Source: Candidatus Daviesbacteria bacterium
GTDB taxonomy: Bacteria > Patescibacteriota > Microgenomatia > Daviesbacterales > UBA10151
Length of the DNA: 64,000 nt
Assembly (NCBI GenBank): GCA_016186955.1
Contig: JACPKP010000004.1
Location: 5,942 to 69,941 of the forward strand
Reading direction: 5' to 3'
Positions 20,701 through 58,134 of the stretch are shown here, one piece after another (the stretch's first letter is position 1; every line of letters begins with the position of its first letter). The notes beneath the pieces are model-generated. The model made no database searches, was not told the DNA's origin, and was given only the letters and a program-made list of their open reading frames with translations. The position numbers and the translations under genes are program-made.

Positions 20701-20764
20701 TATAGGATTTTAGTTTTACATTGCGTTGAAAGAAAAGGGTGGAATTGTTACAATACTACCACTT

Positions 20765-20820
20765 GGGACCGTAGTGAACTGGTTATCACGGTCCGATGGA
20801 CATCGGACAGATAGCGGGTT
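20765..20820 (+). pseudogene. tRNA-Asp 5' partial duplicate (pseudo-tRNA)
   Basis: Its first 26 nt are identical to the intact tRNA-Asp 330 nt downstream (GGGACCGTAGTGAACTGGTTATCACG). The anticodon arm is diverged, the identity AGATAGCGGGTT is shared, and the sequence then diverges with no T-arm or 3' acceptor strand. Confidence 0.6.
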
Positions 20821-20840: not shown

Positions 20841-21104
20841 ATGGGAATAGTTTATATTTTAAGATCGTTAGTAAACGGAAGGTTTTACATTGGGTCGACG
20901 AATGATTTAGAAAGGAGATTTGGAGAACATAATTTAGGAAAATCAAAAGCGACAAAATTTACAGCGCCGTTTGAATTAGTCTTTAGACAGGAATATGATT
21001 CGTTAAACAAAGCCAGACGAGTTGAAAATAAGTTAAAAAAATTTAAGAGCAAGATAATTTTAGAAAAGATAATAAATGATAGTTTTATAACTTTGGGACC
21101 GTAG
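20841..21104 (+). CDS. GIY-YIG nuclease family protein (small, COG2827-like)
   Basis: IVYILRSLVNGRFYIGSTNDLERRFGEH. 87 aa. The stop codon TAG lies inside the 5' acceptor/D region of tRNA-Asp. Confidence 0.8.
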   Translation: MGIVYILRSLVNGRFYIGSTNDLERRFGEHNLGKSKATKFTAPFELVFRQEYDSLNKARRVENKLKKFKSKIILEKIINDSFITLGP

Positions 21105-21167
21105 TGAACTGGTTATCACGTCTCCCTGTCACGGAGAAGATAGCGGGTTCGATTCCCGTCGGTCCCG
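21095..21167 (+). tRNA. tRNA-Asp (anticodon GTC)
   Basis: GGGACCG-TA-GTGA-ACTGGTTA-TCAC-G-TCTCC-CTGTCAC-GGAGA-AGATA-GCGGG-TTCGATT-CCCGT-CGGTCCC-G. Confidence 0.9.
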
Positions 21168-21291
21168 CCTAGGCACTAAATTTTAATATTTCAGTCAGTT
21201 TTCCTGAAATTTGAAGTTAATAGTGTTCGAATTACATCAAGCGAATATTTAGTAAAATTCTGCAGAAATTAACTTTATTTTTAGTAAAAAG

Positions 21292-23870: not shown

Positions 23871-24461
23871 TTGTTTATGTCTAAGTGCATACTATTTATT
23901 GATGGCGAGAATTTTATACATAAAATTGAAGAGGTTTTAAAACAAGAGGGTATAAATAATAACAAAAAAGATTTAGCCTTAATAAACCTAAATAAACTTT
24001 TTAAAGAAGCATTGCAAGGCTTTGATTTTTCCAGAAAGATATTTTATGCCGCCAGACTTCACTTACACCCGGATACTAAAAAGAAATCAGAAGAACTTAT
24101 CAAACTCCAGCGCAAACTGCGCAACAATCTTATAAATCAGGGGTATGAATTCATTATCGCTGGGAATGTTAGAGCTCAAAAGGTGGGGAAGAGTGTGGTT
24201 TTCAGAGAAAAAGGTGTGGATGTAAAAATTGGTGTTGATATGACCTCGCTGGCTTGTGATAAAAAAATTGAAACTGCTATTCTTTGCAGTTCGGACTCAG
24301 ATTTACAACCTGCAATTACAGAACTTAAAGAAAGAGGTATAAAAGTAATCTATTTAGGTTTTGAAAACAATCCCAATAAAGGACTTACCTTTACCACAAA
24401 CAGAACAATCCTGTTAAGAAACTCTGAAGTAATTGAGGCTTGTCAAAACAGAAAAGATTAA
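23871..24461 (+). CDS. NYN/LabA-like (PIN-fold) domain protein
   Basis: N-terminal ILFIDGENF and the later ILCSSDSDLQPAI match the NYN-domain signatures (hhFIDGENh and hhSGDSDF). Confidence 0.6.
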   Translation: MFMSKCILFIDGENFIHKIEEVLKQEGINNNKKDLALINLNKLFKEALQGFDFSRKIFYAARLHLHPDTKKKSEELIKLQRKLRNNLINQGYEFIIAGNVRAQKVGKSVVFREKGVDVKIGVDMTSLACDKKIETAILCSSDSDLQPAITELKERGIKVIYLGFENNPNKGLTFTTNRTILLRNSEVIEACQNRKD

Positions 24462-30879: not shown

Positions 30880-30948
30880 ACCGGCTTGAAGCGGAAAAAC
30901 CAACTACCGATAGAATCCACCCCGTTGTTACTATAATAACCTGATGAA

Positions 30949-31040
30949 AGAACAAAAATCAGGCAACCCTATTTAAAAAACACATCTACTGAACATTTTG
31001 TGCTAAAATACTTCTGATATGGCTACTGTGAATACTGCAA
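30949..31040. repeat. direct repeat copy A (duplicate of the htpX promoter and first 7 codons)
   Basis: About 92 nt, roughly 85% identical to 31560..31650, including a 44-nt perfect core AGAACAAAAATCAGGCAACCCTATTTAAAAAACACATCTACTGA. Confidence 0.85.
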
Positions 31041-31067: not shown

Positions 31068-31328
31068 ATGTCAAGACCCAAACAAGAGCTACAATTTAAG
31101 ATATTAATCGAACAGGATGAAGATGGGATTTATGTGGCTTCTGTACCAGAACTTCCTGGTTGTTATACCCAAGGAAAAACTTTAGAACAGGTTAGGAATC
31201 GGATTAAAGAAGCGATAGAACTGGTTCTAGAATCTGATCAGGAAATAAAAAAAGAAAAGTTACAATCTCCGAAACCAGCTTCTAATTTTTTTGGGATAGA
31301 AGAGATAACTGTCAGCAGTTATGCCTAA
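31068..31328 (+). CDS. hicB: type II TA system HicB family antitoxin
   Basis: FKILIEQDEDGIYVASVPELPGCYTQGKTLEQVRNRIKEAIEL matches HicB/UPF0150. Confidence 0.8.
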   Translation: MSRPKQELQFKILIEQDEDGIYVASVPELPGCYTQGKTLEQVRNRIKEAIELVLESDQEIKKEKLQSPKPASNFFGIEEITVSSYA

Positions 31329-31542
31329 ATTATCTCCAATTAATGCCAAAGAGTTAATTAAAATCCTACAGAAAAAAGGATTTGAGGTTATTCATCAAAA
31401 AGGAAGTCATGTCAGACTTAGATATCCAGATGGCAGAAAAACAACAGTGCCTATGCATGCCGGGGAAAAAATTGGAGTAGGATTGTTGAGGAAAATCTTA
31501 AGGGACGTGAATATCTCAAGAAGTGAGTTTGAAAAGAGATAA
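31321..31542 (+). CDS. hicA: type II TA system HicA family toxin
   Basis: AKELIKILQKKGFEVIHQKGSHVRLRYPDGRKTTVPMHAGEKIGVGLLRKILRD matches HicA/YcfA. Overlaps hicB by 8 nt. Confidence 0.8.
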   Translation: MPKLSPINAKELIKILQKKGFEVIHQKGSHVRLRYPDGRKTTVPMHAGEKIGVGLLRKILRDVNISRSEFEKR

Positions 31543-31559
31543 ATTAAGTTTTGAATGAC

Positions 31560-31650
31560 AGAACAAAAATCAGGCAACCCTATTTAAAAAACACATCTAC
31601 TGAGCATTTTGTGGTAAAATTTACCATAATATGGCAACTATAAATACTGC
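31560..31650. repeat. direct repeat copy B (native htpX promoter and 5' end)
   Basis: See copy A. Confidence 0.85.
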
Positions 31651-32581
31651 TTGGGATCAGGTTTCTTCAAATACATTAAAAACCTGGGCTATCATGATTT
31701 TATTTACCATCTTTGCTGTGGGGGTGGTTTATGTGATTACAACAGCCTGGCTTGGGCCTGATGTTGACGGCTTGGGGATAGTGGGGATGGCATTTATTGT
31801 GGCAGGGGTGATGAATTTTGTGTCATATTTTTGGTCTGACAAAATTGTGCTGGGAATCTCCGGAGCAAAGCCTGTGGATGAGAAATCAAACAAACAGTTA
31901 TACCATCTGGTGGAAAATTTATGCATTGCTGCAGGATTACCTACCCCTAAAATTTATACCCTTGAAGACAGCGCCCCGAACGCCTTTGCAACCGGAAGGG
32001 ATCCAAAACACGCAGCAATCTGTTTTACAACAGGAATCCTGCAAAAACTTAACAAACAAGAGTTGGAGGGTGTGACAGCCCACGAGCTTTCCCATGTCGG
32101 CAATAGGGATACACTTTTGTTGAGCGTTGTCTCTGTTTTAGTGGGTACAATCGCTCTTTTATCCGACTGGTTTTTAAGGTCGCTTTGGTTTGGCGGCGGC
32201 AACCGTGATAATGACAATAAAGGCAGCGCTATTTTTATGGTCCTGGCGCTTGTTGCGGCAATTTTAGCCCCGATTGTGGCAACTTTAATCCAGCTGGCAG
32301 TTTCCAGAAGAAGGGAGTTTTTAGCAGATGCATCAGGGGTGCTTTTAACCCGCTACCCTGAGGGGCTTGCAAGCGCATTGCTGAAAATCTCCTCAGATAA
32401 AGAACCCTTGGAGGCAGCGAACAGAGGTACAGCTCATCTGTACATAGTTAATCCCTTAAAAGGCCTGCCTGCCGGCAGGCAGGGCCATGATGCAGTAGGT
32501 TTTTTGGCAGGGCTTTTCAACACCCACCCCCCAATCCAGGCTAGAATAAAGGCTTTGCAGGAGATGGAAGGCAAAATTTAG
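31631..32581 (+). CDS. htpX: zinc metalloprotease HtpX (M48)
   Basis: TM helices plus HELSHVGNRD (HEXXH) and a downstream EFLAD glutamate. Confidence 0.85.
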   Translation: MATINTAWDQVSSNTLKTWAIMILFTIFAVGVVYVITTAWLGPDVDGLGIVGMAFIVAGVMNFVSYFWSDKIVLGISGAKPVDEKSNKQLYHLVENLCIAAGLPTPKIYTLEDSAPNAFATGRDPKHAAICFTTGILQKLNKQELEGVTAHELSHVGNRDTLLLSVVSVLVGTIALLSDWFLRSLWFGGGNRDNDNKGSAIFMVLALVAAILAPIVATLIQLAVSRRREFLADASGVLLTRYPEGLASALLKISSDKEPLEAANRGTAHLYIVNPLKGLPAGRQGHDAVGFLAGLFNTHPPIQARIKALQEMEGKI

Positions 32582-48844: not shown

Positions 48845-49431
48845 TTGGAGGGACAAGTAAGAAAAATAGTCTCTGATTGTGCGCTACCCCAAGAATGGGC
48901 TGATGATTGGTATAAATGGATGGAAAAAGATGAGAAAAAAGAACTAATACTTTCTGATGAAAATATTAAGAGGTTAAAAGATGAAGTTAAATCTTTAGAT
49001 AAAAAGTTAAATATCCTGCTGGACAGCTACTTAGATCAAGCTATTGATGCTGAAACTTATAAACCAAAAAGAACGAATTTTTCAATGAAAAATTAAAATT
49101 GGAGGAAGAAATAACAAAAATAAAGACAGACGGTTCGAGTTGGCTCGAACCTATGAAAGAGTGGTTAGGTAGCGCACTTTCGTGCGCAAAAATCGCGCGC
49201 ACAAAAAATACATGCTCCGATTTAGCAATCGGAGCAAAAACTGTCGGCTCGAACTTCTTTTTACTTAACCGCCGGCTGCTGGTAAATTATGAAAAGCCTT
49301 TTGCAGCACTCTGCGCGCCCCCACCCGCGCAGAGAAATTCCGAAGCTTTGGCTTCAAAATCCCTTTCGGTACCGCCTACGGGATTCGAACCCGTGATTAC
49401 TGGGATGAAAACCCAGCGTCCTAACCACTAG
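48845..49431 (+). pseudogene. remnant of a large serine recombinase C-terminal region, ending across tRNA-Glu
   Basis: Two short ORFs. DENIKRLKDEVKSLDKKLNILLDSYLDQAIDAETY resembles the coiled-coil DxYxDGxIxxEEY region of serine integrases. The last ORF reads through the tRNA-Glu complement, as the intact recombinase does at tRNA-Gly. Confidence 0.4.
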
Positions 49432-49442
49432 ACGAAGGCGGC
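49370..49442 (-). tRNA. tRNA-Glu (anticodon TTC)
   Basis: Reverse complement gives GCCGCCT-TC-GTCT-AGTGGTTAG-GAC-G-CTGGG-TTTTCAT-CCCAG-TAAT-CACGGG-TTCGAAT-CCCGT-AGGCGGT-A. Confidence 0.8.
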
Positions 49443-49516
49443 TCGTTACACTCGTCACTTATAAATTTTAACAAAATTTACCTTAAATAACCAGTTTACA
49501 AGCATGACTTAAAGGC

Positions 49517-51298
49517 TCATTTCGTACCGTTTAAATCAACTTTTCTGATCCGGACATTTTTTGGGGTGACTTCAACCAGTTCCGTATCATTAATATATTC
49601 TAAGGCATCTTCCAAATCCATAATTTTTGGTGCATTAAAATGTTCGGATACGCCTTCACCGCTGGAACAGTGGTTAGTCTGTTGTTTTTCCTTGCATACA
49701 TTAACACTCATATCGCCTGCTCTGGCGTTTTGGCCGATTACCTGTCCCTTGTAAACCGTAGTTCCCGGCTGAATAAAAACAATCCCCCTGCTTTGGATTG
49801 AGGCAAGCCCGTAAAGTTTGGTTATCCCGTTTTCATGCACAACCAGCGAACCCCTTTCCCTTTGGTAGTTTTGTCCCAAATCCTGCCTAAACTCAAAAAA
49901 GTTTGCATTTATTATTCCCGTACCTTTGGTATCGGTAATAAATTCACTTCTATACCCAAAAAGTTCTTTTGTTGCAATAAGAAACTCTAAAAATACAATC
50001 CCATTTTCCCGGCTCATCTCCTGCAAAACTCCATGGCGCAGCCCCATTTTTTGCATGACCACGCCCTGATAAAGTTCCGGGACTTCTATAAAAACCCGTT
50101 CAAAAGGGGTTATTACTTTCCCGTCACTTATTTTTTCTATCACCTTAGGTCTGGAAACCTGAAACTCAAAACCCTCACGCCTTAAACGCTCAATTAGAAT
50201 TGCCAGGTGCAATTCACCTCTCCCGCAAACTTCCCAGCCTATCCCGTTGTCGGAAACTTTTAGCGCCACATCATCGTCGGCAGCTTTGTAAAGCCGCTCC
50301 CTGATCTGTCTGGAAGTTTTAAACTCCCCCTCTTTTCCGGCAAATGGGGAGGTGTTTACCCCAAAAGTCATTATGACGGTAGGCTCTTCTATAGATAAAA
50401 GCGGTTGGGGCGGTGTACCAATTTCATCGGTAATTGTTTCACCGATAGTTATATCAGTGATTCCTGAAAAGGCTATAATGTCTCCGGCTCCGGCTTCATT
50501 TACGGCAATTTTTTCCAGTCCTTCAAAAACAATTAAAGAAGTTAAGCGGAATTTAAATCTCTCGCCCTCCCTGTTTATTTGTATAACATCCTGGTTGGCT
50601 TTAATCCTTCCGTTGATAATCCGGCCGGTTGCAATCCGGCCTTTAAAATTATCAGACGCAATAGAGGTGACCAAAACCTGGAGCGGTTTATCCGGGTTAC
50701 CTTTGGGAGAGGGGATATGTTTTATAACCGCTTCAAAAACAGGTGTTATATCTGCCATTGCCGGTAAATCAGGTTTGTTTCCGGCAACGCCATTTTTTGC
50801 CGAGGCGTAGATAATGGGAAAATAAGCGCTTTCCTCATCTGCCCCAAGTTCTATAAAAAGGTCAAAAGTTTTACTTATCACATGATCTATCCTGGCGTCA
50901 GGCCTGTCTATCTTGTTGATTACAACAATAATTTTTAATCCCAGAGCTAAAGCCTCCTGTAAAACAAACCTTGTCTGTGGCATAGGGCCCTCTTTTGCAT
51001 CCACCAAAAGCAGGCAGCCATCCACAAGTTTTAAAACGCGTTCAACCTCCCCGCCAAAATCCGCATGTCCGGGTGTGTCAACAATGTTAATTTTAGTTCC
51101 GCGGTAATTTACGGAAGCGTTTTTTGAAAAAATAGTTATGCCCCGTTCTTTTTCAAGCTCGTTGCTGTCCATAATCAAATTTTTGCCGTCAAATTCTTTG
51201 GAAAGTTTCGTTTGGGTTTGGCGGAGCAGGGCATCCACCAGAGTGGTTTTGCCATGGTCAACGTGGGCAATGATCGCTACGTTCCTTAAATTATTCAC
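49517..51298 (-). CDS. typA: translational GTPase TypA/BipA
   Basis: [20 protein letters not shown] and DTPGHADF G-motifs in the EF-G-like domain order. 593 aa. Confidence 0.9.
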
Positions 51299-51337
51299 AA
51301 GAATTTAATTATAACGGATTACACAAAATATAGCAAA

Positions 51338-52012
51338 CTATGGGGTAGATTCCTGCACAAACTTACAATAAGAACAATCCCCGGAAGAATCAGGAATTTT
51401 TCCGTCCAGAATTTTTTTTGCTTCCATTATTTTATCCTCAACCCATGAGTCATTACCATCATAAGGCTGTACTTTAATATCAAAACTTAAATTGCCTTTT
51501 TTAAAACCCTTCTCCTTATTTACCCTGCAATAGACAAAATATCCCCTGTCCAAAACCTTAAACTTATTTTTTCTTAAGATCCACTGGTAGATTTCCATCT
51601 GGCGTTTGTAACTCTCATATAACTCTCCCTCTTTGGCGCCTGATGCTTTGTAGTCAACCACCATAAGGCTGCCTTTGGAGTCTACCCAGATGTCATCAAC
51701 CGCTCCAAACACTAAAAAATCAGTTTTTTTATGATGATACTGGATCCCGGTAAAAGTATTCCGCCATCTATCTATATCGTTGTGCATAAAGGGGATGGCG
51801 TCAATGCCTTCGCGGGTAATAAGGTAATGGGCTGTGCCGTTTTTGCGGTGTCCGTCAAATTCATTTTTGAGAAGAAAATCTACAGCATTGTTAATTGTGT
51901 AAGGAGCACCGAATGGGCGAGCAATACCCTTGCCGGCGTAAAGCCAGAAACAACGGGGACAGTCAAATAATAATTCTAATTTAGACCTCGATAATTTAAT
52001 CATATGGTTCAA
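51338..52012 (-). CDS. Cas4-like/RecB-family PD-(D/E)XK nuclease (DUF83), stand-alone
   Basis: N-terminal CPRC and C-terminal CSYC cysteines (Fe-S cluster pattern), VVDYK (D..K catalytic) and EIYQWIL (QxxxY) motifs. Confidence 0.55.
   Translation of the reverse strand: MNHMIKLSRSKLELLFDCPRCFWLYAGKGIARPFGAPYTINNAVDFLLKNEFDGHRKNGTAHYLITREGIDAIPFMHNDIDRWRNTFTGIQYHHKKTDFLVFGAVDDIWVDSKGSLMVVDYKASGAKEGELYESYKRQMEIYQWILRKNKFKVLDRGYFVYCRVNKEKGFKKGNLSFDIKVQPYDGNDSWVEDKIMEAKKILDGKIPDSSGDCSYCKFVQESTP
51946..52003. repeat. direct repeat copy 1 (native 5' end of the Cas4-like gene)
   Basis: 58 nt. All but 2-3 positions match 53104..53161. Confidence 0.85.
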
Positions 52013-52036
52013 AATTGAGATAGTTTGATCTAACTA

Positions 52037-53083
52037 TTATTTTCTTTTTTTACTTTTATCAACCAGCTTAACTGCTTTATTTGCAAAAGTCTCAAAATCC
52101 TTATCCGCCTTACTTAGATTTTTTAAACGGTTTTTGTAATAAACATTATATTCTTTTTCTGCCAATTCTTTTGCCAGTTCGTGCGAAATTTTGCCGGCGT
52201 CTTTTAAGATTTCTTTGTTATTGATCTGCAAAAAACTATTCAGCTTATCAATCCAATCTTTCATATACATTGGCACCCTCTGAATTGCCTGTCCCTGGGC
52301 AAACACAAGATATTGCTCGACAAGATTATTTAACACAAGAAGCTCTTGCTCGTTCAAGTAATTTTTGGCAATCACCACTTCTTCTTTTGTCGGTTTATTG
52401 CCTCTAAAGTTTGTTAATCCTACGTTTGGTTTTTTGCTATTCACTCTACCGGCAACTATTTCCGCAGCCGTACTTCCCGTAATCGCGTAATGGACTTTGT
52501 TTTGCACTGTTTTAAAAAATAGAATGCTTTGTTCGTCGGTCGGGTCATAGTCCACGCTGGTGGCATAAATATCAGTAATTTTCCTATAAAATCGTTTTTC
52601 AGAAGTGCGAATGTCCGCGATTCGTCGCGTCAAATCTTCAAAATAATCAAACGGCAAATCAGGATTTTTTAATCGCTCATCATCCAATACAAACCCTTTG
52701 ACAATATATTCGCGCAAGCGCGCTGTTGCCCACTGACGAAACGAAGTAGCAATAGAGCTTTTGACACGGTAACCTATAGAAATGATCAAATCCAAATTAT
52801 AGTATTCTAAATTTCGCGAAACCTCACGCTCACCTTCTTTTTGAACTGTTAAGTAATTCTTAACAGTTGCATTTTGAACTAACTCGCCTTCTCCAAAAAT
52901 ATTTTTTACATGCAGGCTAATATTATTTTTTGTTGTTTGAAACAGTTCTGCTAAAGCATTTTGAGTAAGCCACACCGTATCTCCGTCAAAACGCACATCA
53001 ATTTTTGTTTGCCCGTCTTCGGCTTTATAAATAATGATTTGTGATTTTTGATTGTTTGTTTTTATTCCTTTACTCTTAGACAT
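52037..53083 (-). CDS. rhuM: RhuM family virulence-associated protein
   Basis: IIIYKAEDGQTKIDVRFDGDTVWLTQNALAELFQTTKNNISLHVKNIF matches the RhuM N-terminal signature. Confidence 0.75.
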   Translation of the reverse strand: MSKSKGIKTNNQKSQIIIYKAEDGQTKIDVRFDGDTVWLTQNALAELFQTTKNNISLHVKNIFGEGELVQNATVKNYLTVQKEGEREVSRNLEYYNLDLIISIGYRVKSSIATSFRQWATARLREYIVKGFVLDDERLKNPDLPFDYFEDLTRRIADIRTSEKRFYRKITDIYATSVDYDPTDEQSILFFKTVQNKVHYAITGSTAAEIVAGRVNSKKPNVGLTNFRGNKPTKEEVVIAKNYLNEQELLVLNNLVEQYLVFAQGQAIQRVPMYMKDWIDKLNSFLQINNKEILKDAGKISHELAKELAEKEYNVYYKNRLKNLSKADKDFETFANKAVKLVDKSKKRK

Positions 53084-53103
53084 ATTATTTTTTATATCGT
53101 TTC

Positions 53104-53161
53104 AGAAACAACGGGGATAATCAAATAATAATTCTAATTTAGACCTCGATAATTTAATCAT
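53104..53161. repeat. direct repeat copy 2 (duplicated Cas4-like 5' end upstream of rhuM)
   Basis: Encodes the leader peptide MIKLSRSKLELLFDYPRCF*, which ends 16 nt before the rhuM ATG. Confidence 0.85.
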
Positions 53162-53252
53162 TTATTTTCCTCCAAACCCTTTATTTCCATAGTTTACGCT
53201 ATTTGCCTGGTAGATAATTCTGCCAAAGCCGTAAAAATAAGCTCTGCCTCAG

Positions 53253-53480
53253 TCATACGCTTGCTTGCATTTTCAGTTGGTCACATTTTGTGATAGACTC
53301 ACTTCCTTCATGCTTTAAACGGTTTTTAAGTGTGGTCCAATAACTTTGCGCTTTTTTGAAATTGGGTTGTTCAGTAAGAACAGATATAATATCGATCACT
53401 GAAAAATACCATTTTTCCTTTTTCCCGTCCCATTCCCTGCGGATATTCTTGCCTTTAAAAACAGACAGTTGAACATTCAT
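53253..53480 (-). CDS. Bro-N domain-like small protein
   Basis: FKGKNIRREWDGKKEKWYFSVIDIISVL resembles the Bro-N pattern F....iR....dge.WF...D...vL. Confidence 0.4.
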   Translation of the reverse strand: MNVQLSVFKGKNIRREWDGKKEKWYFSVIDIISVLTEQPNFKKAQSYWTTLKNRLKHEGSESITKCDQLKMQASV

Positions 53481-54853: not shown

Positions 54854-55066
54854 AATTCTGTTACATTTACATTCATTTCAATTTTTTCCTTCCACAATTG
54901 CAATTTCTTCCGGCGTCAATCCGTAGAGTTGATAAACTAATTGCTGGATTTGTTTTTTTGTTTCACATTATACTGCATATCCCGCCAGAATCAGGGACTA
55001 TTAAAAACCTGCCAAAAGATTAAAACCTTAGGTAGGTTTTATAGTATCATACACCAAATAATAAGT

Positions 55067-55495
55067 ATGGACAAATTTTCTAAAGAGAAGCGAAGTTTCA
55101 TCATGTCGCGGATTAAAGGTAAAAATACAGGTATAGAGTTAATTGTAAGAAAAAAGCTGTGGGCTTTAGGGTTTAGAGGGTATAGGATCCATTCATCCAA
55201 AGTTTTAGGGAATCCGGACATTACTTTTGGGAAGAAAAAAATTGCCATCTTTTTGGATGGTGATTTTTGGCATGGTTATGTCCTTAAGGAAAGGGCAGGG
55301 AAGTTGCCCATATACTGGTTAAATAAGATCAAGGGGAATATGGGTCGCGATGAAAAATATTCAAAAGAGTTAAGGGGTCAAGGTTGGAAAGTAATAAGGC
55401 TTTGGGAACACGAAATCACGGAAAACTTTGATAAGGCGGTTGCTAAAATTGTAAAGGCTCTTGGAGGGGTAAATACGGCCTGTCAAATTCCTTGA
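55067..55495 (+). CDS. vsr: very short patch repair endonuclease
   Basis: MDKFSKEKRSFIMSRIKGKNTGIELIVRKKLWALGFRGYRIH...IAIFLDGDFWHG matches Vsr. The ORF track starts at 54941, but the Met at 55067 fits the family. Confidence 0.8.
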   Translation: MDKFSKEKRSFIMSRIKGKNTGIELIVRKKLWALGFRGYRIHSSKVLGNPDITFGKKKIAIFLDGDFWHGYVLKERAGKLPIYWLNKIKGNMGRDEKYSKELRGQGWKVIRLWEHEITENFDKAVAKIVKALGGVNTACQIP

Positions 55496-56750
55496 ATTTA
55501 TCCATACTTACATCCTCAAATTTATTATTATCTAACATGGCTATTACACATTGCCCTATATGGTAACCTAGGTTTACAGGGACAGCATTTCCTATTTGTT
55601 TATATTGAGAGCTGGTTGATCCAACAAATTCCCAATCATCAGGAAAAGTTTGTAGCCTGGCATATTCCCTTATTGCCAAAGGCCGTGTTTCCTCCGGGTG
55701 GCAACGTTCGGTTTGTTTCTGGGCAGGCGCACAAGTTAAAGTTAAGCTGGGTTCATTCCAGGATAGGCGTCTTGCCATACCAGTTTTTCCACCACCTAAA
55801 TAGAAACTTTTTCCCATATACTCTTTTTGTAATCCAATAGGTAATGACTTCCAGTATCCACCAGGTGGGACTAATTCCATAATCTTCTTTTTTTTCTCCG
55901 GGTATTGTTGGCCTGGTGATTTTGGGCAACCTCTTAGCGCTTCGCGTAATGAAATTGTATAATCTTTTTCCTTTGGGAAAATGAATGGGATGTTTAAATC
56001 CTTTCGGATGGCAATAATTACCAACCTTTCCCTTTTTTGTGGGACATCCAGGTATTGTGACTTAAGAATTCGGTAAGCAACTTTATATCCTAAATCCCCT
56101 AAACTTTTAACCATTGTAGCTAAAGTCTTACCACTGTCGTGCATTAATAACCCCCTGACATTTTCACCTATCGCTATTTTAGGGTTAGTTTCCTCCACAC
56201 ACCTAGCGAACTGGAAGAACATTGTCCCTCTTATGTCGCCAAAACCTAAACCTTTTCCTGCATAGCTGAATGATTGGCATGGGAAGCCTCCCTGAACTAT
56301 ATTGACTTTACCTACCCATTTCCTAAAGTCGACATTTGCTACATCACCTTGGAGGATATTCCAGCTTGGCCGGTTTTTCTTTAGAGTCTCTACGCAATTT
56401 TTATCGATTTCGTTTAGGAGGATATGGTTTATACCTGCATTTTCAAAGCCTAGTGCAGTACCTCCTGCACCTGCGAACAGTTCAATAGCTGTGTATTTTG
56501 TCTTTTTGCCTGATTTCAGTATGCGGAAGTTATTGATAGTACTTGTTCCTTTAACCTTGGTTTGCACCCGCTGGAGTTCATCTATACTAAAGAGGCGGTA
56601 ATTGTGGTCTGACCTGGCTGATTTTATTAATCCCTTTTTCTCCCATCTTCTTATGGTATCAACAGAAACATCCAGTTTCTGGGCAGCCACATGGATAGTA
56701 AGCAGTTTATTCACTAAACTTATAATAATAGTAACCAATGCATAATGCAA
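55443..56750 (-). CDS. dcm: DNA (cytosine-5)-methyltransferase with N-terminal MerR-like HTH
   Basis: Motif I ELFAGAGGTALGF, motif IV GGFPCQSFSYAGK (PCQ), motif VI ENV. Converges with vsr and overlaps it by about 50 nt. Confidence 0.85.
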   Translation of the reverse strand: MHYALVTIIISLVNKLLTIHVAAQKLDVSVDTIRRWEKKGLIKSARSDHNYRLFSIDELQRVQTKVKGTSTINNFRILKSGKKTKYTAIELFAGAGGTALGFENAGINHILLNEIDKNCVETLKKNRPSWNILQGDVANVDFRKWVGKVNIVQGGFPCQSFSYAGKGLGFGDIRGTMFFQFARCVEETNPKIAIGENVRGLLMHDSGKTLATMVKSLGDLGYKVAYRILKSQYLDVPQKRERLVIIAIRKDLNIPFIFPKEKDYTISLREALRGCPKSPGQQYPEKKKKIMELVPPGGYWKSLPIGLQKEYMGKSFYLGGGKTGMARRLSWNEPSLTLTCAPAQKQTERCHPEETRPLAIREYARLQTFPDDWEFVGSTSSQYKQIGNAVPVNLGYHIGQCVIAMLDNNKFEDVSMDKFKEFDRPYLPLQEPLQF

Positions 56751-56771
56751 GGGTTATAATTATTACAGGAC

Positions 56772-57464
56772 TTATGAATAGGTTTTTTCGAATATTTCCT
56801 TGTAAAAGGGGTCATTAACAATAACTTTTAAAGGTTTGCCTAAAACATCTCCAGTTATTTGAGGGAGAATCTCGTATAACTGTTTTAATGCATCAGGTAC
56901 CCCACTTGCAAGGGCATAGAAAGTTTTTCCGTCAGTTACGTGAATACGGCCAACTGTTTCCCTAACTGTATGGGTTTTATTATCAGGTGGAGAAAAATCC
57001 TTGTCATAAATGTACCTATTTTTTGGTATAATTTCAACATAGTATGCAGTAAAGCCGGGGTATTCGCTATCTAATGCATACTTGAGGTTATCGTAAATTA
57101 CTACCTTGTCAGAACCTTTTGTTGTATTGTGCTTATTTTTTATTTCAGCAATTATTTTTTTCCCAACATTCCTTATGTCTATCAAGTGTCCAGTCCCTAA
57201 ATCCTCCCACCCAGGCATAGAGCCCAGGATCCTTTGGTGGAAATCCCCTAATTTGTTTTGCATTGATTTTTGCCCCTGCCTTACCCTTTCTAATTCCACC
57301 CACTTGGATAAAGTTATTCCCTGGATTGAAGCTTCAAACACAGCGGAAAAAGGATCAACAGCATTTTTATAAAAACTCTTTTCTGTCTCTTGCTTAATAT
57401 ATGAGAGCACCCATGAAACGTGTTTATGTAGGTCTTCGTCTTTAATAAATGTAAGTAAAGCCAT
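56772..57464 (-). CDS. putative type II restriction endonuclease (PD-(D/E)XK)
   Basis: 230 aa directly downstream of the C5-MTase. GHLIDIRNVGKKIIAEIKNK is a plausible D...(D/E)xK core. Confidence 0.4.
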   Translation of the reverse strand: MALLTFIKDEDLHKHVSWVLSYIKQETEKSFYKNAVDPFSAVFEASIQGITLSKWVELERVRQGQKSMQNKLGDFHQRILGSMPGWEDLGTGHLIDIRNVGKKIIAEIKNKHNTTKGSDKVVIYDNLKYALDSEYPGFTAYYVEIIPKNRYIYDKDFSPPDNKTHTVRETVGRIHVTDGKTFYALASGVPDALKQLYEILPQITGDVLGKPLKVIVNDPFYKEIFEKTYS

Positions 57465-57471
57465 ATTTGGA

Positions 57472-58134
57472 TTATACCAAATTCTCTTTACTCATACTGA
57501 AGAAGCCTTCACCAGTAACTATGATGTGGTCGAAAAGTTCAATACCGAGTAATTTTCCAGCGTCGGCCAGTTTTGCAGTTATTTTTATATCTTCTTCTGA
57601 AGGGTCAGGATTGCCAGAAGGATGGTTATGGGCAATAATGATTTGGGCGGCGGAGTTACGAATGGCTGGTTCGAAGACTTCGCGCGGATGCACAAGCGAT
57701 TCATTTAATGTACCAATAGAAATAATTTCCCTACATATTTCCTGGTTCCTGGTATCTAAATAAAAAACCATAAAATGCTCCTTTTTAAGATCCCTAATAT
57801 CTTTTAATTGTTCCCAGACATCTTTTGGAGATAAAATTAACTCTGTTTTTTTCTCTTTTAATAAGCGTTTTCCAAGCTCAAAGCAAGCTACAATTTCACA
57901 TGCCTTTGTTTCCCCTAACCCTGTTGTATTTTTTAATGCTTTTACATCGGCCCTTGTTAAATTGTTGCCGGTAAATTTTTTAAGGATTTTATTTGAAAGT
58001 TCAACAACGTTTATACCTTTAATGCCAGTCCCTAAAAGGATAGCTAGAAGCTCTGAATTTGAAAGTTTTTCAGGCCCGTATCTAATCAGTTTTTCCCTTG
58101 GCCGGTCAATTTTTGGTAAATCCTTTATTTTCAT
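57472..58134 (-). CDS. radC: RadC-family (JAB/MPN) protein
   Basis: PREKLIRYGPEKLSNSELLAILLGTGIKG (HhH) and a C-terminal IIAHNHPSGNPDPSEED JAMM motif. Confidence 0.85.
   Translation of the reverse strand: MKIKDLPKIDRPREKLIRYGPEKLSNSELLAILLGTGIKGINVVELSNKILKKFTGNNLTRADVKALKNTTGLGETKACEIVACFELGKRLLKEKKTELILSPKDVWEQLKDIRDLKKEHFMVFYLDTRNQEICREIISIGTLNESLVHPREVFEPAIRNSAAQIIIAHNHPSGNPDPSEEDIKITAKLADAGKLLGIELFDHIIVTGEGFFSMSKENLV

Follow-up and report, generated by a model that had tools for sequence, protein, structure and literature searches.

We analysed a 64,000-nucleotide (nt) stretch of Candidatus Daviesbacteria DNA (assembly GCA_016186955.1, contig JACPKP010000004.1, positions 5,942 to 69,941), hereafter the window, in which a rhuM gene lies directly upstream of a gene for a Cas4-like nuclease and is bracketed by two copies of the 5′ end of that nuclease gene. 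The minus strand carries rhuM, its leader, the nuclease gene and typA alike; read on this strand, the order is a GGAGG motif, a short leader open reading frame (ORF) formed by copy 2 of the repeat, a spacer, rhuM, a second spacer, copy 1 with the remainder of the nuclease gene, and typA. The leader (53102-53161; ATG at 53161) consists of the 19 codons MIKLSRSKLELLFDYPRCF and a TGA stop (53104-53102), and an A/T-rich spacer of 18 nt (53084-53101) separates this stop from the ATG of rhuM (52037-53083; ATG at 53083), an intact gene of 348 aa. A further 33 nt (52004-52036), which hold no Shine-Dalgarno (SD) motif, separate the rhuM stop from the ATG of the nuclease gene (51338-52003). The latter is also intact, encodes 221 aa and opens with MIKLSRSKLELLFDCPRCFW; by repeat search and orthologue comparison, copy 1 (51945-52003) represents its true first 20 codons.

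Both proteins were assigned through profile searches. RhuM matched PF13310 with an E-value of 5.6e-106 (353.9 bits, compared with a cut-off of 33.7; profile positions 1-248 of 252) and the PADLOC profile of the candidate system PDC-S05 with an E-value of 2e-136. In excerpts of Anantharaman et al. (2013; PMC3710099), RhuM is described as a predicted toxin domain that is often fused to DOC and embedded in restriction-modification (R-M) loci, and the same family and neighbourhood (Eco47II-type R-M, Vsr, RadC) are found here; those excerpts and the PDC-S05 reports treat gene neighbourhoods, not the route of arrival, and make no mention of long flanking target duplications. Judged from sequence, rhuM is a widespread candidate defence or toxin gene with a predicted activity. 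The nuclease was identified by its match to the PD-(D/E)XK profile PF12705 (E 3.3e-13; 50.6 bits, compared with a cut-off of 22) and by orthologues 74-87% identical in other genomes of the Candidate Phyla Radiation (CPR). It also matched the PADLOC Cas4/Cas4b models with partial coverage (E 1e-7 to 8e-9). An Rfam scan of the window revealed no CRISPR repeat family, no CRISPR-like array was present among the window repeats, and the neighbours of the gene are typA, rhuM and R-M genes; "Cas4-like" is therefore used for the fold only. Exact-protein look-ups of the nuclease (with two start choices), RhuM, NCBI TypA and a 75-aa ORF upstream of copy 2 returned no record.

The two copies of the repeat (51945-52003 and 53103-53161) are in direct orientation, spaced 1158 nt apart, and identical at 57 of 59 positions, the mismatches lying at 51960/53118 and 51962/53120. 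Similarity stops at the following base (51944 C versus 53102 T), where, on the minus strand, TGG in the nuclease gene corresponds to TGA in the leader. When up to 3 mismatches were allowed, the repeat occurred at these two sites only, and 100 dinucleotide-preserving shuffles yielded 0 matches; the blastn-short E-value of the pair was 1.6e-25. The preliminary description of this locus, which had given 58-nt copies with 2-3 differences, was thus close to what we find. It had also placed a leader ORF in front of the rhuM ATG, and copy 2 does form such a short ORF, but the gap measures 18 nt and not the 16 nt given there. The insert between the repeats is 1,099 nt in length, holds rhuM as its sole gene, and showed no terminal inverted repeats. 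GC content was 0.359 for rhuM, 0.396 for the nuclease gene and 0.377 for the window; these differences are not distinctive enough, and a foreign origin of rhuM argued from composition was dropped.

A scan of species-representative genomes returned 16 close orthologues of the nuclease (74-87% aa identity) from Daviesbacteria, Levybacteria, Collierbacteria and related metagenome-assembled genomes. All 16 open with M[I/T]KLSRSK[I/L]ELLF[D/E]CPRCFW, the same 20 codons, and carry the 60-nt segment as a single copy, with rhuM upstream in 0/16 and typA as a neighbour in 0/16. Nucleotide homology among them starts exactly at the ATG, and the upstream context differs in every genome. Because these orthologues open alike without rhuM, copy 1 together with the gene body is the normal gene and copy 2 is the extra one, as had been proposed; compared with the rhuM-less relatives, rhuM is an insertion relative to the usual state in 16/16. 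Copy 2 differs from copy 1 by one synonymous change, C15Y and W20stop (TGG to TGA), and the latter two changes are present in no orthologue; such a pattern would be expected of a fragment freed from protein-level selection. In the viral contigs that were searched, one intact nuclease gene copy and 0 extra leader fragments were found. At several loci (L007, L011, L015 and L016) the 3′ end of a type IIG (Eco57I/MmeI-like) R-M gene lies directly upstream of the nuclease gene; the upstream ORF of L007 (2134-5286) was viewed in full, and those of the other three were judged by the C-terminal motif ...YGLT.EEI..IE*. The nuclease gene is suggested to be a defence-island passenger or an R-M accessory and not a housekeeping gene.

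A metagenome scan with RhuM returned 80 loci, the closest of which, L081 (JGI contig Ga0208373_1004301), encodes a RhuM 93% identical to that of the window. L081 contains, in order, a gene for a KAP-type NTPase, a leader (20 codons followed by NNIQK and a stop), rhuM, a second leader (20 codons and a stop) and an unrelated 128-aa ORF; no full nuclease gene was found within 3.9 kb. The alignment of window and L081 covers 1,220 nt (92% identity), from the ATG of the first leader to just after codon 20 of the second, and their flanks are unrelated. The shared module includes the 33-nt spacer downstream of rhuM and the homologous A/T-rich junction upstream of it. This leader-rhuM junction has an identical position in both; the L081 leader stops 1 nt before the rhuM ATG, and the window leader is shortened relative to it by the TGG to TGA change. 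In a further locus, L007, a 21-codon leader fragment (MIKLSRSKIELLFDCSRCFWS*) is followed by 15 nt, an unrelated 192-aa ORF and then an intact nuclease gene. Neither the 192-aa nor the 128-aa cargo had a match in Pfam or PADLOC, and homologues of the 192-aa cargo elsewhere showed no leader fragment and no flanking repeat and added no further junctions. A local, one-off duplication, as envisaged in the preliminary description, does not hold, given that the module is common to L081 and that flanking repeats recur throughout the rhuM family (see below).

The sequences of these leaders also speak to their origin. Synonymous and non-synonymous counts were obtained by NG86 path counting. The two leader copies of L081 differ at 8/60 nt (proportions of synonymous and non-synonymous differences, pS and pN, 0.53 and 0.04) and those of L007 at 11/60 nt (pS 0.61, pN 0.09), and this synonymous divergence exceeds the dS of 0.27 for rhuM between window and L081. 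Over the same comparison rhuM is under purifying selection, with a dN/dS of 0.115. The upstream leader of L081 has 1 mismatch to an L006-type gene allele, and the downstream leader is closest to L008 and window-type alleles, with 6 mismatches each. Because the divergence is mostly synonymous and greater than that of rhuM, the leader copies in L081 and L007 stem from different functional alleles, which in turn implies that the repeat-flanked unit moved between nuclease gene copies by recombination inside the leader. The near-identical copies in the window fit either a recent duplication or gene conversion.

Flanking repeats were then examined across rhuM loci, by comparing 600 nt upstream with 900 nt downstream of each gene and scoring a direct repeat with E<1e-5 as significant. 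Such a repeat flanked rhuM at 20/60 testable loci, compared with at most 26/733 controls, which were ORFs of 150-500 aa taken from these loci and from the window. Two of the 26 were rhuM itself; when these were removed, the controls stood at 24/731, with an odds ratio of ~14.7 (Fisher p 7e-13). The rhuM-flanking repeats are 17-128 nt long, 87-100% identical, and made of local sequence. They mostly cover the promoter, -10 box, ribosome-binding site or first bases of the downstream gene, twice include a shared ATGA, and in occasional cases contain the 3′ end of the gene upstream. As a rule, 0-20 nt separate the rhuM ATG from the left edge of the insert. When rhuM loci from different contexts are compared, homology is limited to the ORF, from about -60 to +25 nt, and repeats are shared between differing contexts in the window-L081 pair only. 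Because homology between loci excludes the repeats, these are target-derived and new at each site. The sequence comparisons indicate that rhuM would move as a small cassette without a transposase or integrase of its own.

Tandem or nearby nuclease paralogues exist in loci L020 and L001, and the window repeat might on this precedent be the remnant of such a pair, the body of the upstream paralogue having been replaced by rhuM. However, nucleotide identity between the two window copies is 97%, whereas identity to the window protein is only 42-46% for the upstream paralogue of L001 and 49% and 40% for the tandem copies of L020. The same breakpoint is moreover seen with three cargos, the whole unit is also present in L081 in a different context, and the repeat-flanked pattern occurs at targets that are not paralogous. 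We consider such a remnant very unlikely.

Our interpretation, with a probability of about 0.62, is that the rhuM unit entered the nuclease gene within its 5′ end and is a case of insertion with long target duplication (ILTD). This unit would be ~1.1 kb in size and comprise the rhuM ORF with 18 nt upstream and 33 nt downstream, with no promoter of its own detected; it would sit directly after codon 20, with the first 59-60 nt of the gene on both sides. The nuclease gene stays intact downstream of the insertion, and the upstream copy, now a 19-codon ORF, keeps the original start codon of the gene and a strong SD motif, so that rhuM has been placed behind the expression signals of the target gene. 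CPR bacteria have few classical mobile elements and are thought to take up DNA. The unit probably arrived by DNA uptake and host recombination and not through a recombinase of its own. Its first junction might have arisen from a template switch during replication or repair, from the target into foreign DNA and back upstream, or, once DNA had been taken up, from homology-anchored illegitimate joining; both would be compatible with repeats of variable length and the lack of a recombinase nearby. The repeat-flanked unit would then have spread to other nuclease gene copies by homologous recombination within the 60-nt leader, and through its two repeats rhuM could be lost precisely or released as a circle.

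ILTDs have been defined by a repeat >30 bp, an insert <20 kb and no linked mobility genes (Furuta et al. 2010, PMC2853133). Those of R-M units (also Nobusato et al. 2000, as cited in PMC2853133) show variable repeats, occur mostly in naturally competent species and have an unknown insertion mechanism, and Kobayashi's group proposed for them a life cycle of insertion, amplification via the repeats, and release (PMC2853133). At the present locus the repeat measures 59 nt (57/59 identical), and the insert is far below 20 kb; neither it nor its surroundings contain an integrase, transposase or phage gene. The published survey further called for R and M genes, and the cargo here is rhuM alone; since R-M cargo set the scope of that survey, the rhuM case extends the class and is not a strict published member of it. 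With the published cases it shares a small unit without mobility genes, long and variable target-derived repeats that far exceed transposon duplications, a target that can be preserved and a defence context, and the published hypothesis of amplification and release via flanking repeats applies here too. It differs from them in its single non-R-M cargo (rhuM/PDC-S05, and also HicBA and GIY-YIG at sites described below), in its CPR host (Candidatus Daviesbacteria), and in its target, the first 20 codons of a coding sequence, which gives rise to a short upstream ORF. Moreover, the unit is common to unrelated contexts, and a single breakpoint serves three cargos. Empty-site comparisons underlie the published cases, whereas the comparison here is with orthologous genes without syntenic flanks. 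In the searchable literature, ILTD is discussed for R-M systems only, with nothing for Patescibacteria or rhuM; what is new here is the cargo, the phylum and the coding-region target, the ILTD class itself being known but little studied.

Several observations weigh against reading the locus as an ILTD. A strict empty site, with the same flanks but without rhuM, was not found among the nuclease homologues, the best of which is 86% identical; the outer flanks of the orthologues show no synteny to the window, relatives identified through TypA (78% identity) differ in their neighbours, and no strain-level relative turned up. Even the published class lacks a known insertion mechanism. At the rhuM site the repeat has its first base at the ATG, and no promoter was duplicated. 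SD use is rare in this genome, so that a dependence of rhuM on the leader cannot be argued, and rhuM may initiate unaided. Three cargos (rhuM, the 128-aa ORF and the 192-aa ORF) join the leader after the same codon, TGG codon 20, which a non-specific recombination route does not predict. Lastly, three Logan contigs with identical TypA (L161-L163, corresponding to window ~49415-51893) end at ~51893, 51494 and 51485, before the repeat.

These contig ends neither confirm nor refute the repeat junctions; strain variation or low coverage at this locus might explain why the contigs break within the nuclease gene or shortly before it. They do bear on whether the structure is a repeat-induced misjoin of two strain variants, as might be suspected in a metagenome-assembled genome when independent contigs of the same organism break before the repeat. 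The two copies, however, differ at fixed positions and lie in different flanks; the arrangement leader-rhuM-leader was assembled independently from another sample, at 92% identity; and analogous structures exist in about 20 other contigs. An assembly artefact is thus extremely unlikely, given that the independent L081 contig has the same module.

The shared breakpoint is what would be seen if the 60-nt leader were a docking site similar to att or attC, at which promoterless cassettes are placed after codon 20 by a recombinase from another locus, the site being restored each time so that cassettes can stack as in an integron. Three cargos at one codon (rhuM in the window and in L081, the 128-aa ORF in L081, the 192-aa ORF in L007) are consistent with this, as are the two leader-cargo units that L081 holds in tandem with no full nuclease gene within 3.9 kb, the sharp module boundaries on both sides, and the match of the L081 leaders to different alleles, as expected of a crossover at the site's right end. 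Yet no integrase or recombinase is encoded in the window island or beside the L007 and L081 units, the repeats at other rhuM loci (17-128 nt) come from unrelated targets, and constraint on the N-terminal protein sequence of the nuclease accounts for the conservation of the leader. Known junctions number only 3, and members of the 192-aa cargo family found elsewhere have neither leader fragments nor repeats. We consider a docking site unlikely. A broader proposal, which we regard as doubtful, is that the first 60 nt of the nuclease gene form a reusable landing pad, restored at every insertion, on which promoterless defence or selfish cassettes enter at a fixed point after codon 20 and stack into integron-like arrays without a linked integrase, each behind a short translated leader, and that duplication of the target's expression signals is the main route of movement for small defence genes such as rhuM, HicBA, AbiV, NYN and GIY-YIG in CPR bacteria.

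Expression signals around rhuM were examined by simple consensus matching. Directly in front of copy 2, no promoter was found. A single good promoter-like site on the minus strand, TTGACT-18-TATATT (53516-53487; 10/12 matches), lies ~330 nt upstream, before a truncated ORF, and hits in this region were not above those in shuffled sequence. This site is a candidate source of a transcript reading into the leader and rhuM, and rhuM is probably transcribed from upstream. Capture of both promoter and leader had been suggested for this site; for the leader this is borne out by the structure, whereas the repeat starts at the ATG and a captured promoter can here only be presumed. Promoter duplication is visible at several other rhuM loci and at htpX. 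A perfect GGAGG SD motif (53169-53173) stands 7 nt before the ATG of copy 2 and is the only perfect match among 55 starts (49 long ORFs plus 6 starts around the locus, with crude start calls). At the first in-frame starts of the long window ORFs, 0/49 had a perfect GGAGG and 3/49 matched 4 of 5 positions. An argument that rhuM lacks an SD motif and hence needs the leader was abandoned, SD motifs being rare in this genome.

The distance from leader stop to cargo ATG is 18 nt in the window, 1 and 16 nt in L081, and 15 nt in L007, and these distances would fit translational coupling. It is conceivable that the leader is a selected regulatory upstream ORF, whose SD-driven translation controls the translation of the cargo or is coupled to it. 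For such a role one can cite the stop positions, which fall 1-18 nt before the cargo ATG in 4/4 cases, the perfect GGAGG that is unique among the starts examined, and leader peptides that are nearly identical despite 9-15% nucleotide divergence. However, conservation of the peptide does not extend to the window, where the leader has C15Y and ends at a premature stop, and a synonymous bias in the divergence is equally explained by an origin in functional genes. Most genes in this genome start without an SD motif, and rhuM may initiate alone. Moreover, the RNA of two junctions folded no better than shuffled controls (z +0.39 and -0.77), and a structure-based RNA switch was rejected. Selection of the leader as a regulatory element seems quite improbable.

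The ILTD interpretation was also set against other known systems. The absence of a transposase and of terminal inverted repeats, together with duplications that vary from 17 to 128 nt across rhuM loci, does not agree with a classical transposon or insertion sequence. Like integron cassettes, the units are ORF-sized, mostly promoterless, expressed from outside signals and, in L081, stacked in tandem with a repeated site. In contrast to integrons, the annotated neighbours include no intI integrase, an attC-type imperfect palindrome is absent, the site that is repeated consists of the coding 5′ end of a gene, rhuM copies elsewhere have targets unrelated to this one, and the junction transcript folds no better than shuffled controls. 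Some integrative elements target the end of a gene and carry a replacement copy of it, as in integration into tRNA genes or of SXT-type elements into the 5′ end of prfC. There too, direct repeats of a gene end flank the insert and the target remains functional, but such elements encode or depend on a tyrosine or serine integrase and use a fixed att core, whereas here no integrase is present and repeat length ranges over 17-128 nt. Homology-facilitated illegitimate recombination, known from work on natural transformation in Acinetobacter and Streptococcus, is recombinase-free and uses one homologous anchor to integrate adjacent foreign DNA; it could generate, and above all spread, units of this kind. 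To our knowledge, regular long duplications have not been documented for it, and by analogy it would serve as a mechanistic lead only.

The architecture recurs at two further sites in the window. As the preliminary description had stated, a parallel exists at hicBA, which lies upstream of the M48 peptidase gene htpX: a 66-nt repeat (30944-31009 and 31555-31620; 95% identical) flanks hicB (31068-31328) and hicA (31321-31542) and precedes htpX (31631-32581), with weaker similarity continuing through htpX codons 1-9. The duplicated stretch contains an extended -10 element (TGTGCTAAAAT), so that here, unlike at rhuM, the promoter was duplicated. Translation of the upstream copy gives MATVNTARE*, with 19 nt between its end and the hicB ATG. 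At the second site, a gene for a GIY-YIG protein (86 aa; ORF 20841-21100) is situated between a decayed tRNA-like copy and an intact tRNA-Asp (21095-21169), flanked by a perfect 28-nt duplication of the 5′ part of the tRNA (20763-20790 and 21093-21120); after rhuM and hicBA, this makes a third case of a small selfish gene with a duplicated target start at its flanks. Between 22225 and 26777, five diverged copies (67-76% identity) of a ~78-nt intergenic element alternate with small genes, among them an NYN-domain gene (23871-24461). The series could be an older cassette array split by target copies, or a repeated promoter element. Other small defence or selfish genes were also repeat-flanked in CPR loci, including AbiV (L086:2967-3584; direct repeat of 60 nt, 100%), an AAA_14/DUF4143 ATPase (L144:4588-5808; 86 nt, 100%), an NYN gene (L094:3301-3798; 148 nt, 88%), a PD-(D/E)XK nuclease homologue (L080:5944-6693; 47 nt, 89%), a Y1-transposase-like gene and KilA-N.

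The 75-aa ORF on the minus strand (53253-53480), which forms the upstream context of copy 2, matched a PADLOC profile of PDC-S13/PDC-S04 type with an E-value of 3.8e-25 over its N-terminal part (profile positions 5-73 of 286). Because only the N-terminal ~70 residues of these ~290-aa proteins are matched, we regard the ORF as a truncated gene; small ORFs like it also flank rhuM in L081, L082 and L139. Farther along, a type II R-M module (54941-57464) comprises an Eco47II-family endonuclease (56772-57464), a Dcm methylase with an N-terminal MerR helix-turn-helix (55443-56750) and a Vsr mismatch endonuclease (54941-55495) that converges on dcm with an overlap of ~50 nt, and RadC (57472-58134) adjoins the module. 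A Pfam scan of the island genes also identified an AEP-like protein and found no integrase, transposase or other mobility genes.

Defence islands gain and lose small genes fast, and the vehicle of movement is known for few single-gene defence systems. As described above, long target-derived repeats enclose rhuM about ten times as often as they do neighbouring genes, and one repeat-flanked unit has moved between unrelated contexts. The insertion leaves its target gene preserved, and the cargo comes to lie behind the expression signals of that gene. If our interpretation is correct, ILTD-type rearrangement would extend from R-M systems to other selfish and defence genes, and to the CPR bacteria.

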